IMG/VR virus record: IMGVR_UViG_3300025133_009393 | Reading direction: 5' to 3' (one strand) | DNA: 64,000 nucleotides | Source of the DNA: a virus | Shown: positions 45,162-63,990 of the stretch, piece by piece | Layout: each line of letters starts with the position of its first letter | How positions within the stretch are numbered: the first letter of the stretch is position 1 | Position numbers and translations under genes: made by a program | The notes under the pieces: generated by a model | The model's input: the letters and a program-made list of their open reading frames with translations, nothing else | The model's database searches: none | What the model was told of the DNA's origin: nothing

Positions 45162-45474
45162 TGGTGGAGATGCCGGGAGTCGAACCCGGGTCCTAAATAT
45201 TTTATTTATTAAGTCATTCACAAGGATAGTTGAAGACCACCTTCCAACAACCACCTGTCATAGACAGGGTATCCGATTTTTCTCAATTTGTTAAGCTCAA
45301 AATGCAACTTTTGTTAACAAGGCAGTTACCGCCCCGTGATTATGCCGCTAGGGCGTAATCAAAATTAACGCTATTATCGTTGGCGTTTAAAGTTTTGAGT
45401 GTTTTTACTGTGCCACACTCACACAGCCTTGCACTTAATAAAATCATATATCCAGTCGATACCAGTTCATCCCC
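45162..45474 (-). ncRNA. ssrA: tmRNA (SsrA), one-piece, tag ANDNSVNFDYALAA
   Basis: 5' GGGGATG...TCGAC and 3' CCGGGTTCGACTCCCGGCATCTCCACCA give an acceptor stem with G3-U wobble, T-arm and encoded CCA. pk1-like CTGTG/CACAG plus TGAGTGT/ACACTCA. Tag ORF at 45340-45384 ends in YALAA*. Confidence 0.97.
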
Positions 45475-45531: not shown

Positions 45532-45783
45532 TTATCGATCTGGCTCAAAAGTCACGCTTGACAATTGTGCTCTAAAGGCAGAAGCAATATCATTGCGATC
45601 TAATATTCGAAATAACTCCATTAATGCGTTCGCGACTGAGAGGCGCGCATTATTATCTCGTGAAACCTTCATTACTACTTGGTCGATCGCGTGGGTGACC
45701 GCCCAATCTGCATTTTCAGTAAGAAGTATTTTTTCCGCCTCTTCTTTAATAATTTGGTTTAATTGTGATTTTGTAATATTCAT
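45532..45783 (-). CDS. Hypothetical protein with leader motif B (MNITKSQLNQIIKEE)
   Basis: GAGGA RBS. The motif is shared with ORFs at 63.2-64 kb. Confidence 0.75.
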   Translation of the reverse strand: MNITKSQLNQIIKEEAEKILLTENADWAVTHAIDQVVMKVSRDNNARLSVANALMELFRILDRNDIASAFRAQLSSVTFEPDR

Positions 45784-54451: not shown

Positions 54452-54760
54452 TCACATTAGTGTTTTTTCTTGTTTCTCTAAGTTAATAAAGAAATCCTCA
54501 GTATACATTATACTATTTTCACTGTCTTCGTCAAGTAAAAAATTAATTTTAAATTCTGAGCGGGGCATTTGGATAACCATTGGCTCTCCACCATGCTTTT
54601 CGACGATTTTCATCGCATTTTCTTCTGCCAAGCCGTAACTTCCCCATTCACTAGGCGCTTTTATACCATTTTTGACTATTTCTTCTTGAAATACGGTCGA
54701 GGTACCATAATAAAGATCTTCTTGGATATACTTTCGCCAGTTTTCAAATAGGAGTTTCAT
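54452..54760 (-). CDS. Leader-motif-A protein, possible ART/Tpt1-like fold
   Basis: MKLLFENWRKYIQE, then LYYGTS...I.KNGI and GGEPMVIQ, which resemble the LYHGT motif of ART/KptA folds (weak match). Confidence 0.5.
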   Translation of the reverse strand: MKLLFENWRKYIQEDLYYGTSTVFQEEIVKNGIKAPSEWGSYGLAEENAMKIVEKHGGEPMVIQMPRSEFKINFLLDEDSENSIMYTEDFFINLEKQEKTLM

Positions 54761-55169
54761 CTACTACTTTCCTCTTGATCCTATAAAATGCAACATGTGT
54801 TTCTAAGTTGTTTTGAGTAAATGAATCAATCTTCAATAATGCTACAAGATAATTAGCATCCGGATCGATTTTGCTCAAATGAGTTGCATACATAATCGCT
54901 AGCAAAGAAATGCCATCTAAATCATTCTGAGACGCATCTCCGACCCATACCAAAGATAACAAATCATCGACGCCCATACAATTTTTATGTCTATGAACTC
55001 TGACTCCCAATTGTTGTACAAAATAACTCTCTGCCGGCATTCCACAAGTCGCAACAAACCTCTTAACAGAAAGAGGAGATTTATTAACCAATCCTGGATT
55101 GCTTGTGGTTGTTGCACAAGCAGAAAATGCAAACATTAGTAATATCGCACATAGTTTAATCTTTTTCAT
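54744..55169 (-). CDS. Lipoprotein
   Basis: Signal peptide with FSAC lipobox. Confidence 0.7.
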   Translation of the reverse strand: MKKIKLCAILLMFAFSACATTTSNPGLVNKSPLSVKRFVATCGMPAESYFVQQLGVRVHRHKNCMGVDDLLSLVWVGDASQNDLDGISLLAIMYATHLSKIDPDANYLVALLKIDSFTQNNLETHVAFYRIKRKVVDETPI

Positions 55170-55960
55170 TTTTCGTCCTTGTTACTTTTTTTAAAAATAC
55201 AAATTTGCTCTGGGCCTTTGGCTGACTCGTTATATTCTGTAGATTTCCACGCTTCTAGAGAATATTCGGGTTTAAAAAATTTTGTTATAGAATCTTTATT
55301 AAACAAATGACAATGAGGATGAAAATCTAATTTATCAATTTTTAATTTGACAGGCCGATTATAAGGTACTTGAATTATTAAAGTATTACAATTTAAATTA
55401 ATTGCTTGGTTTTTAAATTGGCTAAGGTCATCAAAATGTTCTAAAACGTCAATAGCTGCAAGAATATCATATTTTTTATCTTTAATATCTAAAAAGTTGC
55501 AATTGTGAACATGCTCAAATTTGCCATTTAAATATTTTTCACATGACCCTATATCTAATTCACAAACACTAACTTTTATATTTTCAAAATGTTCTTTAAA
55601 ACATTGGCTAAAAATTCCATCGTAAGCGCCAATCTCTAAATAATTAGTTAAGTTATATTTTGAAAGCAAATCTGTTTCTTTTACAAATTTTATTATATGA
55701 GCCGCCCATTTTTTTCTAATTTCTGCAGGGACTTTTTTGTCTTTATTGAGTTCTCGAAAAACATTTTTGTAATACTCTTCTACCTCTTCTTTCGTTTTTT
55801 GCCAATTCCAATAAAAATGACCACAGCCTTCTTCTGCCGGGGGGCTACTACCATCACCATCACTGCATACAAATGTTTTTTGATATCCTTTTCGCACGTC
55901 GGTCCAGAACCGCTTGGGGCCTGCAAGGCGCATCGTTTTTTTACAACATTGACAAATCAT
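55166..55960 (-). CDS. Class I SAM methyltransferase with N-terminal Cys/Zn segment
   Basis: CQCC...C...CGH, YLEIGAYDG, DVLEHF and QVP. Confidence 0.8.
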   Translation of the reverse strand: MICQCCKKTMRLAGPKRFWTDVRKGYQKTFVCSDGDGSSPPAEEGCGHFYWNWQKTKEEVEEYYKNVFRELNKDKKVPAEIRKKWAAHIIKFVKETDLLSKYNLTNYLEIGAYDGIFSQCFKEHFENIKVSVCELDIGSCEKYLNGKFEHVHNCNFLDIKDKKYDILAAIDVLEHFDDLSQFKNQAINLNCNTLIIQVPYNRPVKLKIDKLDFHPHCHLFNKDSITKFFKPEYSLEAWKSTEYNESAKGPEQICIFKKSNKDEK

Positions 55961-56388
55961 TTTCTATCCTCATATGCTTTTTTAATTACTTTTTTAAATT
56001 TATCAGATGTATTAAAATCTTTTTCTAGGATCTTATCGACATCAAAAAATTTATGATCTGAATGTTCATGGCTTAAGGAAATATCAGTGTCAGGCAAACT
56101 AGCTCTATAGAAGGTAATTCTGCCTTGCTTAAGGACTTCTACAGGATTTTGTATATCCAGGCCTGTCTCTTCACTAACTTCTCTTTTAAGGCCCTCTACG
56201 TGGCTCTCATCGCGATGTATGTGACCGCCGGGTAAATCCCACTCACCCTTGAAATTTCCTAGCGCTGATTTTAATAACAAGACCTTATCATTTTCATCAA
56301 ACAAAACAACTTTTGATACTTGATCTGAATCCAATGGAGCTTCCTCTTTAATTAAGTAGTTGCGCCAATTTTCAAACAGGAGTTTCAC
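55957..56388 (-). CDS. NUDIX hydrolase carrying leader motif A
   Basis: WDLPGGH...GLKREVSEETGL Nudix box. N-terminus MKLLFENWRNYLIKE (GTG start). Confidence 0.9.
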   Translation of the reverse strand: MKLLFENWRNYLIKEEAPLDSDQVSKVVLFDENDKVLLLKSALGNFKGEWDLPGGHIHRDESHVEGLKREVSEETGLDIQNPVEVLKQGRITFYRASLPDTDISLSHEHSDHKFFDVDKILEKDFNTSDKFKKVIKKAYEDRK

Positions 56389-57863
56389 TTAGGAGGCCTC
56401 CCTTCTCTTCTTCTCTGCAGAACGTTGAAGGCCATATCCCTTGTTCTCTGCTGAGGATTGTTTTCTGCTATATCCTTTAAGATATCTGAAGGAACAACCT
56501 CGTGATATTTGACAATTCTTTTAGCAACTCCAATATATTCGTAAAACTCTTCACTGGCTAGCCATCTTAATATGTATGTTGGAATATTAAAATGATCCAT
56601 AGTCGCCATTTCTGCTAATGTGTTTGCCATGCCATATGGATCTTCTAAAGAATTCAGAATTTCCCTCATCTCATCTATCTGTGGCGCTGTATAGCGCGGG
56701 TTGTCGACAAGGCGTATTTTTACCATCCTCTTCAAATCAAATATTCTGAGCATCTCATATTTGTTATATGCTTCTGTTTGAGTAAGTAGATCATGCAACA
56801 CTTCAAAAGATTCTCCCGTGAGCCTCTGGTCCTTCGAATCCATGAATTGTGATGATCCGTAGTGGAACTGAAATTTATTTAAATTGCTTTTATTCTGGAA
56901 ATAAAATAAAGGATCTTCTTCTTCATAATAATCTTCAAAATAATCTAAACCGGGGGCAGCAGTACACCAGTCGGTGCTTTTACCTAATTCGCATGCGGCG
57001 CCTTTATTGTGAAGCGCCGCAATCGTCCACTTATCGTCATCTCTGAAGATTTCTGTTCCTTCTTCAGCATCAAGATAATTCTTCTTCTCTTGTGCTTTAT
57101 CAATTTCCTCCTTTGCGGCGTCTGTCATCTCAATAAGATCTTCCATAGTCTTGACTTGCATTAAATCTTGTCTAGGCATAAATCGCTGATGGTGGAAAAA
57201 GGTTTCAATGCTGTTACGCTCACGGGCAAAGATGCGGCCAGCGATGAAATTAGCAGCAACTTTTGGATTTTCTCTTGCCACCTTTAATAGCCAGAGAACA
57301 GCTGTGCCCTTTTGATTATCAGTCAAATCATATGGAACAGAATCTAAAAGATAGTTTTTGAAGTTACGATGTTGGGTATTCCAGTGCGGCATATAAGATA
57401 GATCAGGATGATCAGGGTGTTTTTGTTCTACGTCATAGCGATACGCTTTAATAATCTTTATAGTGCGCTTGGAATCAAGGATCTCTTTTGCATCTGAAAA
57501 GGAAACCTCATTAAGGTACTTCCGCCAATTTTCAAACAAATTTAATTGATGAGGAGTTTCTTTAACACGCGTTAAAAATTCTTCGATGCTTTCATCTGAC
57601 CACGTACCATCTTTCGGAATTTTTGGCCACTTATCTGCTTTGTCTGTACCATCTGGAATAACCGCCTTATATTTCCAATCACCGATACGTTCATCAAAAT
57701 AATAATCGATTATTGGCTGGCGGGGGGCCCATCGGTGCTGTGAACTTTGTGCAGAATTAAAACTAAATTTATCTGATATAATATATTCTATTTCATTTTT
57801 GTCCAAAGTTGGTTCGACAGTCTCATTTAAGTACTTTCGCCAATTTTCAAATAAGTATTTCAT
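56385..57863 (-). CDS. Protein with two copies of leader motif A and a PcfJ-like domain
   Basis: MKYLFENWRKYLNE at the start and LFENWRKYLNE near aa 110. AACELGKSTDWCTA...FEDY...KFQFH...FMD is PcfJ-like. Confidence 0.65.
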   Translation of the reverse strand: MKYLFENWRKYLNETVEPTLDKNEIEYIISDKFSFNSAQSSQHRWAPRQPIIDYYFDERIGDWKYKAVIPDGTDKADKWPKIPKDGTWSDESIEEFLTRVKETPHQLNLFENWRKYLNEVSFSDAKEILDSKRTIKIIKAYRYDVEQKHPDHPDLSYMPHWNTQHRNFKNYLLDSVPYDLTDNQKGTAVLWLLKVARENPKVAANFIAGRIFARERNSIETFFHHQRFMPRQDLMQVKTMEDLIEMTDAAKEEIDKAQEKKNYLDAEEGTEIFRDDDKWTIAALHNKGAACELGKSTDWCTAAPGLDYFEDYYEEEDPLFYFQNKSNLNKFQFHYGSSQFMDSKDQRLTGESFEVLHDLLTQTEAYNKYEMLRIFDLKRMVKIRLVDNPRYTAPQIDEMREILNSLEDPYGMANTLAEMATMDHFNIPTYILRWLASEEFYEYIGVAKRIVKYHEVVPSDILKDIAENNPQQRTRDMAFNVLQRRREGRPPK

Positions 57864-63163: not shown

Positions 63164-63256
63164 ATGGGTTGGTTTATCTTCGGTACAGTTGTAGGTGTAT
63201 GGAGCCACCATGTATATCACCATCTTACCGAGCCAAGTTACAAGTTTTATGACTGA
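63164..63256 (+). CDS. 30-aa hydrophobic microprotein
   Basis: Not in the ORF track. AGGAGG RBS, then MGWFIFGTVVGVWSHHVYHHLTEPSYKFYD. Confidence 0.55.
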   Translation: MGWFIFGTVVGVWSHHVYHHLTEPSYKFYD

Positions 63257-63353
63257 TCAATAAGAGATTGCTTCTAGAGGGCCGGCCACACTTTCGTAGC
63301 TTCTTAAGTTCTTCTTTAATAATCTGTTTTAATTGATCTTTTGTGATTTTCAT
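63225..63353 (-). CDS. 42-aa ORF that is mostly leader motif B
   Basis: Not in the ORF track. MKITKDQLKQIIKEELKKLRKCGRPSRSNLLLISHKTCNLAR, with an AGGA RBS. Confidence 0.55.
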   Translation of the reverse strand: MKITKDQLKQIIKEELKKLRKCGRPSRSNLLLISHKTCNLAR

Positions 63354-63363
63354 CTGTTAATTC

Positions 63364-63990
63364 CTATTCTCGATTTCCGTAATGACGCAACTGACGCTCT
63401 TTGCTTGAACCAACTGGCGCTGCTTTAGGCATATTAAAGGCTTCTACGTCCGTTTCTGCCGTTTCTGGTTTTTTAGTACCGATAGCAGCCTGTTTAGCTA
63501 AATATTCTAGCTTTGCAGCTAGGTCATATTGGTTCTCGCCATATTGCAGGTCCAGCAATTCCCCAACAGCTTCTAATACTTCGGCTGTCTTTTTCTCTGC
63601 TCGCGCGGTAACATCGAACATGTTAGGAGAATGCCCAACTTCTGATGCTGGTGTACCAGAAGGAGTTCCTGTTATAAAATCAGTACCGGCGACCGGTCGC
63701 GTACCTTCAATTGTCAGTTGAAACTCTTCCTTAATAATTTGTTCTAATTGTTTTTTTGTGAATCCTTCTGGGGCACTACTTGCCAGCCCATCATGCATAT
63801 CCTGTACAGACATTACAGAATCCTCATCATCTTCTATCAGATTAGCTAATTCTTCTTTAATAATCTGTGTTAGTTGTTGTTTTGTAATATTCTTTTTATT
63901 TTCGAAGAGACTTCCAGTCGTAACGTCTCTTAAGGAATATTGCCTTAATTTCATAGCATATTTTTCAACTTTATCATTTACTCTCTGCAT
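63364..63990 (-). CDS. Protein with two internal copies of leader motif B
   Basis: KNITKQQLTQIIKEEL and GFTKKQLEQIIKEEF. Confidence 0.7.
   Translation of the reverse strand: MQRVNDKVEKYAMKLRQYSLRDVTTGSLFENKKNITKQQLTQIIKEELANLIEDDEDSVMSVQDMHDGLASSAPEGFTKKQLEQIIKEEFQLTIEGTRPVAGTDFITGTPSGTPASEVGHSPNMFDVTARAEKKTAEVLEAVGELLDLQYGENQYDLAAKLEYLAKQAAIGTKKPETAETDVEAFNMPKAAPVGSSKERQLRHYGNRE

Follow-up and report, generated by a model that had tools for sequence, protein, structure and literature searches.

A portable N-terminal peptide on unrelated proteins of distant T4 relatives is a candidate capsid-targeting and cleavage signal

We describe a 14-residue peptide, consensus M-K-L-L-F-E-N-W-R-K-Y-L-x-E (the tag), that heads three unrelated proteins in a 64,000-nucleotide stretch of viral DNA (the window; IMG/VR record IMGVR_UViG_3300025133_009393) and recurs on many unrelated proteins of other uncultured viruses. 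Comparative evidence leads us to propose, with moderate confidence, that the tag is a capsid-targeting and cleavage signal of the T4 style that serves a large set of swappable cargo proteins. The leader principle itself is known from T4; a tag non-homologous to that of T4, many more cargos, internal tags and carrier modules would be new. A portable T4-like capsid tag had been suggested in an earlier note on this DNA, and after testing it is the best-supported explanation, through a sharp 14-residue end, an S77-family protease, avoidance of [LI]-x-E and sites at domain junctions, all of which are indirect.

The tag in the window

By gene content the window belongs to a large T4-type phage, with a baseplate wedge gene, PhoH, glycosyltransferases and a transfer-messenger RNA (tmRNA) gene among its genes, and the whole tagged region lies on the minus strand. 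A six-frame scan of the 64 kb identifies four in-frame copies of the tag, three N-terminal and one inside an open reading frame (ORF) of 492 amino acids (aa), and no further copy in any of the six frames. The near-identical N-terminal peptide that the earlier note reported on three ORFs is present on all three, at the positions given there; the internal copy was absent from its account. The features are as follows, where ART stands for ADP-ribosyltransferase.

54452-54760 (-), 102-aa ORF, start MKLLFENWRKYIQE
54719..54760 (-), tag of the 102-aa ORF (MKLLFENWRKYIQE)
54452..54718 (-), small LY[YH]GTS...PSxWG...AE...GGxP domain of the 102-aa ORF, with a weak ART/Tpt1-like fold
55957-56388 (-), 143-aa ORF, start MKLLFENWRNYLIKE; its GTG start overlaps the upstream stop as GTGA
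56344..56388 (-), tag of the NUDIX (143-aa) ORF, a 15-residue variant MKLLFENWRNYLIKE with GTG start
55957..56343 (-), NUDIX hydrolase body, PF00293 at residues 27-127 of 143
56385-57863 (-), 492-aa ORF, start MKYLFENWRKYLNE
57822..57863 (-), tag of the 492-aa ORF (MKYLFENWRKYLNE)
57549..57821 (-), portable N-module, residues 15-105 of the 492-aa ORF
57507..57548 (-), internal tag QLNLFENWRKYLNE, residues 106-119 of the 492-aa ORF, at the carrier/cargo junction
56385..57506 (-), cargo domain of the 492-aa ORF, residues 120-492 plus stop

The copies in the window differ synonymously (Leu as CTA, CTG, TTA or TTG; Arg as CGA, CGC or CGG; AAT or AAC; TAT or TAC). DNA upstream of them is not conserved, and conservation starts at the start codon.

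Distribution, boundary and codon use of the tag

A degenerate back-translation of FENWR(K/N)Y matches at least 120 IMG/VR contigs, and in 98 of the 137 matches listed a start codon stands exactly four codons upstream, giving the context MKLLFENWRKYL. ORFs with this start are 72-837 aa long and continue in unrelated sequences, so that the N-terminal enrichment on diverse domains that the earlier note had expected is borne out. In 596 Gb of cellular genomes the pattern occurs as often as expected by chance, and none of 120 sampled matches there has the tag context; occurrence in cellular proteins, which that note had listed as counting against its idea, was thus looked for and not seen in the sample. 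On these control matches, together with the copy counts in whole records (below), we reject chance as the origin of the tag. Among cultured phages, tblastn with 25 aa gave no match and blastn with 45 nucleotides (nt) gave chance matches only, and we found no description of the tag in the literature. The tag is confined to viruses and to N-termini, and its cargo is diverse and shuffled.

With a slightly wider peptide pattern, IMG/VR yields at least 166 non-redundant tagged ORFs, mostly unrelated to one another. Across 166 of these the information content lies between 2.3 and 4.3 bits for positions 1-12 and reaches 2.7 for Glu14, dropping to 0.85 at position 15 and to about 0.3 thereafter, a collapse that delimits the tag as a unit of exactly 14 residues. 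The Glu of an [LIVMF]-x-E motif is residue 14 in 121 of the 166 and residue 15 in another 17, and a hydrophobic-x-Glu falls within residues 11-20 in 155, the remaining 11 being without one. Variants with a one-residue insertion, namely YLLTE, YLIKE (found in the window) and YMLKE, retain the hydrophobic-x-Glu.

Every synonymous codon is used at the degenerate positions of 192 tagged ORFs while the residue is kept at 90% or more, and all synonymous codons occur at Leu3, Leu12 and Arg9, which are near-invariant as residues. Selection therefore acts on the peptide, and we reject a purely DNA-level repeat on these grounds; the differing codons and kept peptide that the earlier note had read from the window hold across this larger set as well. 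Tag codons are also skewed relative to those of the bodies (CTC 38% vs 8%, CTA 53% vs 12%, CGA 51% vs 14%; TTT and GAA reach 97% in the tag, and AAG is favoured too), and this skew to one DNA version points to spread through duplication or recombination.

Arrays of tagged genes and their cargo

Whole IMG/VR records hold 6-10 exact FENWR copies each, on one strand only and mostly clustered. Of the 83 ORFs that reach 90 aa or more in seven of these arrays, 48 bear the tag, and tagged genes form operons in which neighbours overlap head-to-tail. The arrays differ between records, with cargo exchanged at the tag and the same domain found behind different carriers. Pfam families on 69 tagged proteins include NUDIX, protein kinase, SET, RNase_T, NT5C, 5'-nucleotidase and HNH, as well as PGDYG, DUF7178, TMEM65 and alpha/beta hydrolase; most of the 69 match no Pfam family, and no PHROG is common to all tagged proteins. 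The cargo bodies are net acidic in 78% of cases and up to 837 aa long, and a hydrophobic 19-mer is present in 11 of 166. NUDIX and NT5C are found both tagged and untagged in tag-bearing phages. The tag is confined to uncultured marine myoviruses of the T4 type that encode an S77 prohead protease (below). Judged by the capsid protein, this lineage is a distant relative of T4, and the closest phages in culture are Flavobacterium phage immuto (45% identity), Microcystis phage Mel-JY01 and Rhodothermus phage RM378.

Carrier-cargo fusions with internal tags

Comparison with related contigs identifies the 492-aa ORF as a fusion, by sequence, of a tagged carrier, an internal tag and a cargo. In related contigs, residues 120-492 correspond to a tagged gene of their own (L252:5992-7209, 67% identity; L100; L087), and in an alignment the module at residues 15-105 lies behind the tag in seven proteins that then continue into four different downstream domains. 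Protein P0001 keeps the module and the internal tag in front of a different cargo; it is the single candidate that a 5.8-billion-protein index, which demands several shared words, returned for query residues 1-40. In L044 and L062 the module is followed, as cargo, by the domain of the 102-aa ORF. Retention of the internal tag before differing cargos suggests that the tag is also functional, or at least conserved, in internal positions, as would fit a binding-and-cleavage element and not a strictly N-terminal signal. An AlphaFold2 (AF2) model of the N-module has a predicted local distance difference test score (pLDDT) of 51, too poor for a fold search.

The domain of the 102-aa ORF is likewise found in other phages as a C-terminal cargo, behind no fewer than six different tagged carriers. 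Directly before this domain, 10 of 12 fusions have a hydrophobic-x-E(E) (LSE, LEE, LNE, LTE, LYE, LDE, LVE, FGE and others), and the motif is not present at this place in untagged distant homologues of the 102-aa ORF.

Prohead protease, capsid protein and avoidance of the putative cleavage site

The gp21-type prohead protease, Peptidase_S77 (PF03420), is encoded in both of the two complete tag-bearing records and in 7/10 of all those tested; the records that lack it are fragments. A gp23-type capsid protein is present in all eight large tag-bearing records tested and in none of five further fragments (8-48% completeness). In these capsid proteins an invariant LLENQAKELL(R/K)E immediately precedes the conserved core, and the S77 protease of tag-bearing phages begins MxKKVLLRE. 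T4 gp24 begins MAKINELLRE; gp21 removes exactly these 10 N-terminal residues, and T4 gp23 is cut after FLTE at residue 65 (PMC9958956). Set beside these T4 cleavages, the LLRE sites suggest that the L-x-E specificity of the protease seems to have been kept in the lineage, and we infer that the capsid protein would be cleaved at LLRE.

A protein that survives beside a protease cutting at L/I-x-E would be expected to avoid that site. In tagged bodies the observed/expected ratio of [LI]-x-E is 0.996, as against 1.26 in untagged ORFs of the same contigs, a tagged/untagged ratio of 0.79 (bootstrap 95% confidence interval (CI) 0.72-0.87). When controls are restricted to the same strand and the bootstrap is run at the level of families, this ratio is 0.80 (CI 0.71-0.91). 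For six control motifs (the motif reversed, Glu replaced by Asp, Gln or Lys, and altered spacings) the ratios lie between 0.92 and 1.08. The folded parts of the proteins do not include the tag: NUDIX begins only at residue 27, and in the AF2 model of the 102-aa ORF (pLDDT 71.5) tag residues 1-12 score below 50 and the fold begins at residue 15.

As a separate observation, the gp23-type capsid proteins of the lineage (L259-L261, L268-L272) are 581-677 aa long, T4 gp23 having 521 aa, and carry a variable insertion after a conserved VSVQPMSLP segment.

Comparison with known systems

Mullaney and Black in 1996 and Repoila et al. in 1994 reportedly dealt with the capsid targeting sequence of T4 and the polymorphic ip loci of T-even phages. 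T4 internal proteins IPII and IPIII both begin MKTYQEFIAE. The 10-residue capsid-targeting sequence of T4 is enough for foreign proteins to be packaged, and gp21 removes it; residues 4 and 7 are important to targeting, residues 8 and 10 to processing (PMC9026906), and the internal proteins of T-even phages have only this leader in common (PMC12373910, PMC3012670). The tag resembles the leader of IPII and IPIII as a short MK leader with Glu6 followed by an aromatic residue and an end in I/L-x-E, and resembles the system in that it heads unrelated proteins of adjacent genes at variable loci in phages with a gp21-type protease. It differs in having 14 residues instead of 10, in reaching 10 exact FENWR copies per record (more with variants) where T4 has three proteins, and in its cargo, which numbers 166 or more distinct proteins, for the most part acidic enzymes as long as 837 aa and not small inhibitors. 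Internal tags and carrier modules are additions of this lineage.

A second likeness is to the propeptide of the capsid protein. Both the tag and the LLENQAKELL(R/K)E segment fit L-[LF]-E-N-x-x-K-x-L-(x)-x-E, the capsid segment set against the tag being LLENQAKELLRE, and the propeptide of T4 gp23 contains KIFENQEKDF. A relaxed form of the pattern, allowing conservative substitutions, matches 137 tags, every capsid protein in the set and one other site in 642,370 residues of open frames. We take it as a lead from sequence likeness that the tag may use the contact of the capsid propeptide with the scaffold.

The giant phages phiKZ, 201phi2-1 and SPN3US also have many head-internal proteins, including enzymes, that are processed after Glu by a T4-related protease; their cleavage is at S/A-x-E, and paralogues can have identical N-termini (PMC5694885). 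Their propeptides differ, being mostly 80-130 residues long with no universal short tag (PMC5694885), and these phages are not close relatives of the tag-bearing lineage. The promoter early stem-loop (PeSL) cassettes of T4-type phages resemble the tag as a short repeat at gene boundaries in hyperplastic regions where genes are gained, lost or swapped (PMC2839356, PMC4122927). They are intergenic promoter-terminator DNA, whereas the tag repeat is coding and conserved as peptide.

Proposed mechanism

We propose that the tag forms an amphipathic helix that would dock the attached protein on the scaffolding core of the assembling prohead, possibly through the contact made by that stretch of the major capsid protein's propeptide which lies nearest the cleavage site and which the tag resembles. 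The gp21-type (S77) protease would then cut after the Glu of L/I/V-x-E and release the cargo inside the head, from which it would exit with the DNA at infection. Internal tags, or a bare hydrophobic-x-E between carrier and cargo, would be cut likewise, giving a polyprotein-like delivery. Because it is also about 40 nt of similar DNA, the tag probably serves in addition as the recombination joint at which cargo is swapped. Docking, cleavage, packaging and injection are the inferred steps of this scheme.

A fuller version, to which we give somewhat less than even weight, is that one tag modelled on the end of the capsid propeptide loads dozens of swappable enzymes as injected effectors, including an ART-like domain, NUDIX hydrolases, kinases, a SET methyltransferase and nucleases, together with carrier-cargo fusions cut by the head protease at internal tags, in a system far larger than that of T4. 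A role of these effectors against nucleotide- or ADP-ribose-based host defences is speculation.

Several points weigh against a capsid-loading function. Support for packaging, cleavage and injection is indirect throughout, and the tag was found in no phage in culture; a tag profile with a working positive control finds nothing in immuto, Mel-JY01, RM378, T4 or the uncultured record LR756508. The protease and capsid genes were read in related tag-bearing records and not in the window's own genome. Acidic, large and partly hydrophobic proteins are awkward as cargo beside DNA, and NUDIX and NT5C, being both tagged and untagged, might just as well work in the cytoplasm. Between the tag and MKTYQEFIAE there is no homology, the two sharing the pattern MK...E-aromatic...[IL]-x-E alone. 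The pattern common to tag and capsid propeptide was picked after both sequences had been viewed, and the tag profile has no capsid protein among its best 25 non-tag hits, so we keep mimicry as a lead only. As to the timing of expression, beside the tagged genes of the window there is no TATAAATA, and sigma-70-like sites there are not above shuffles.

Alternative explanations

We considered four other explanations, each of which explains less than a capsid-targeting tag does. The first is an N-terminal stability or turnover signal, such as a degron for host ClpXP or another AAA+ (ATPases associated with diverse cellular activities) protease, that would give its proteins a timed cytoplasmic life with no capsid link; we regard this as unlikely. 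Flynn et al. reportedly described in 2003 a loose N-terminal pattern for ClpX (N-motif 2), Met-basic-hydrophobic x3-X5-hydrophobic, and MKLLFENWRKY fits this pattern. The N-terminal position of the tag in those 98 of the 137 matches listed and the many cargos that are ordinary cytoplasmic enzymes agree with it too. Such a degron leaves its 'X5' stretch free, however, and it is there that the near-invariant E6, N7, W8 and R9 fall; fully conserved internal copies behind a carrier cannot serve as an N-terminal degron, and the hydrophobic-x-E end, the x-E fusion junctions and the avoidance of [LI]-x-E are left unexplained.

Alternatively, the tagged proteins could be packaged and clipped without being delivered, as core or scaffold mass, as aids to DNA packing, or as proteins degraded and expelled like scaffold, an outcome that we consider improbable to the same degree. 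The evidence for targeting and cleavage applies equally here. T4 internal proteins are DNA-binding and basic, so the mostly acidic cargo, unlike them in this respect, is a point in its favour. A further one is that most T4 core proteins are degraded by gp21 (PMC9958956). Against this, the cargo consists of folded enzymes of many kinds, and the internal avoidance of [LI]-x-E suggests that it outlasts the protease intact, which would be pointless for a disposable scaffold.

A leader recognised by another phage partner, be it a maturase like those of ribosomally synthesized and post-translationally modified peptides (RiPPs), a chaperone or a non-capsid protease with many substrates, appears slightly less probable still. 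Leader-guided maturases, too, work through a single short leader placed on many unrelated bodies. Pfam searches of 35 untagged neighbours in the seven arrays, which cover array neighbourhoods only, nevertheless show no recurrent enzyme and no radical-SAM (S-adenosylmethionine) protein, NUDIX alone recurring, three times, and an adjacent maturase is rejected since none is found among these neighbours. The arrays also lie at varying distances from any single gene, and to our knowledge the prohead protease is the only [LI]-x-E-specific enzyme in such phages.

Least probable of all is a nucleic-acid unit, either a translation-initiation cassette or a PeSL-like joint for homologous recombination (or both) with the peptide as by-product, for although the skew of tag codons to one DNA version, cargo exchange exactly at the tag and the head-to-tail overlap of tagged genes in operons would suit it, near-invariant positions draw on the full sets of six Leu and six Arg codons, the in-frame internal copy retains the peptide with no start codon, and upstream DNA is not conserved. 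A role in recombination is compatible with a peptide function and is probably additional to it.

Implications of a possible head-loading signal

The way in which proteins are sorted into the scaffolding core of T4 is described as still 'mysterious' (PMC9958956), and the likeness of the tag to the end of the capsid propeptide points to a concrete hypothesis of docking. Provided that the tag is a head-loading signal, any tagged protein in marine viromes becomes a candidate virion-delivered effector that can be recognised straight from metagenomes, and hundreds of 'hypothetical' phage genes become a defined, testable class. The internal-protein principle of T4 would then have been scaled up in the ocean to whole enzyme sets, and the tag could act as a packaging handle for engineering cargo into such phages.

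Identity of the cargo in the window

The 143-aa ORF is a NUDIX protein, as the earlier note had named it (PF00293, 61.4 bits vs a cut-off of 21.1, E 1.2e-16), and it matches phrog_1198. It also matches phrog_15528, annotated as portal protein, at profile positions 521-632, which are NUDIX-like; judging from this profile, NUDIX domains seem to be fused to a head protein in some phages.

The 102-aa ORF had been called possibly ART/Tpt1-like, and of this a weak fold match stands. The best 18 Foldseek matches of its AF2 model in the PDB are all Tpt1/KptA, weakly so (best E 5e-3; template modelling score by query (TMq) 0.54, by target (TMt) 0.33), followed by PARP14, exotoxin A and DarT, and in one Atlas cluster of look-alikes 16% of members are PARP. 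The ORF has no Pfam family, its domain of only about 88 aa spans about half of Tpt1, and the catalytic Arg/His set of Tpt1, which lies partly in the N-terminal lobe, was not found in it. The copy in the window reads LYYGTS where relatives read LYHGTS, with Tyr in place of His. An ART-like fold is thus a lead from modelling. P0014, an untagged relative of 100 aa, ends in a tag-like KIFENWNKFLKGV that looks like read-through into the tag of the next gene.

A 'PcfJ-like' (PF14284) assignment of the 492-aa ORF finds no backing in Pfam: the whole ORF has no match at E<=0.01, nor do its cargo domain and three homologues at E<=1. No match to this ORF was found in the phage collection. An Atlas search with its cargo domain returns viral hypothetical proteins and LRV/HEAT leads.

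Further leaders and neighbouring genes

Two other leaders accompany the tag. The second, M-(K/N)-I-T-K-x-Q-L-x-Q-I-I-K-E-E, has four copies in the window, two of them N-terminal (45532-45783 (-) and ~63230-63353 (-)) and two internal, at ~63888 and ~63762, in ORF 63364-63990 (-). It heads 18 distinct ORFs of related virus loci, often in FENWR-tag arrays. Further array genes (L124:704-1126, L124:1119-2231, L127:7821-9008, L252:10350-12968) start with a third leader, less strict than the others, whose core is W-(K/Q)-x-F-(L/I)-x-E, as in MKKWKDFLTE. Together with the variants MKLLLENWRKF and MKLLMEQWRGY this leader suggests a family of related tags with the core W-basic-x-aromatic-L-x-E.

Within a single family of large proteins (L042:553-3066, L252:1707-3539, L252:10350-12968), which measure 610-872 aa and contain a motif resembling RFTI(A/S)YEIEL, there are members with the full tag, a decayed tag (MKMLFENKEL...) or the third leader. 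Three leader states on one kind of body indicate that leaders are exchanged or lost.

Between the tagged genes of the window, at 54744-55960 (-), lie two untagged genes, one for a 141-aa protein with a lipoprotein-type signal (...FAFSAC) and one for a 264-aa S-adenosylmethionine (SAM) methyltransferase (Methyltransf_23) with a Cys-rich N-terminus. ARAGORN places the tmRNA gene at 45162-45474 (-), with tag peptide ANDNSVNFDYALAA; it adjoins a gene with the second leader.

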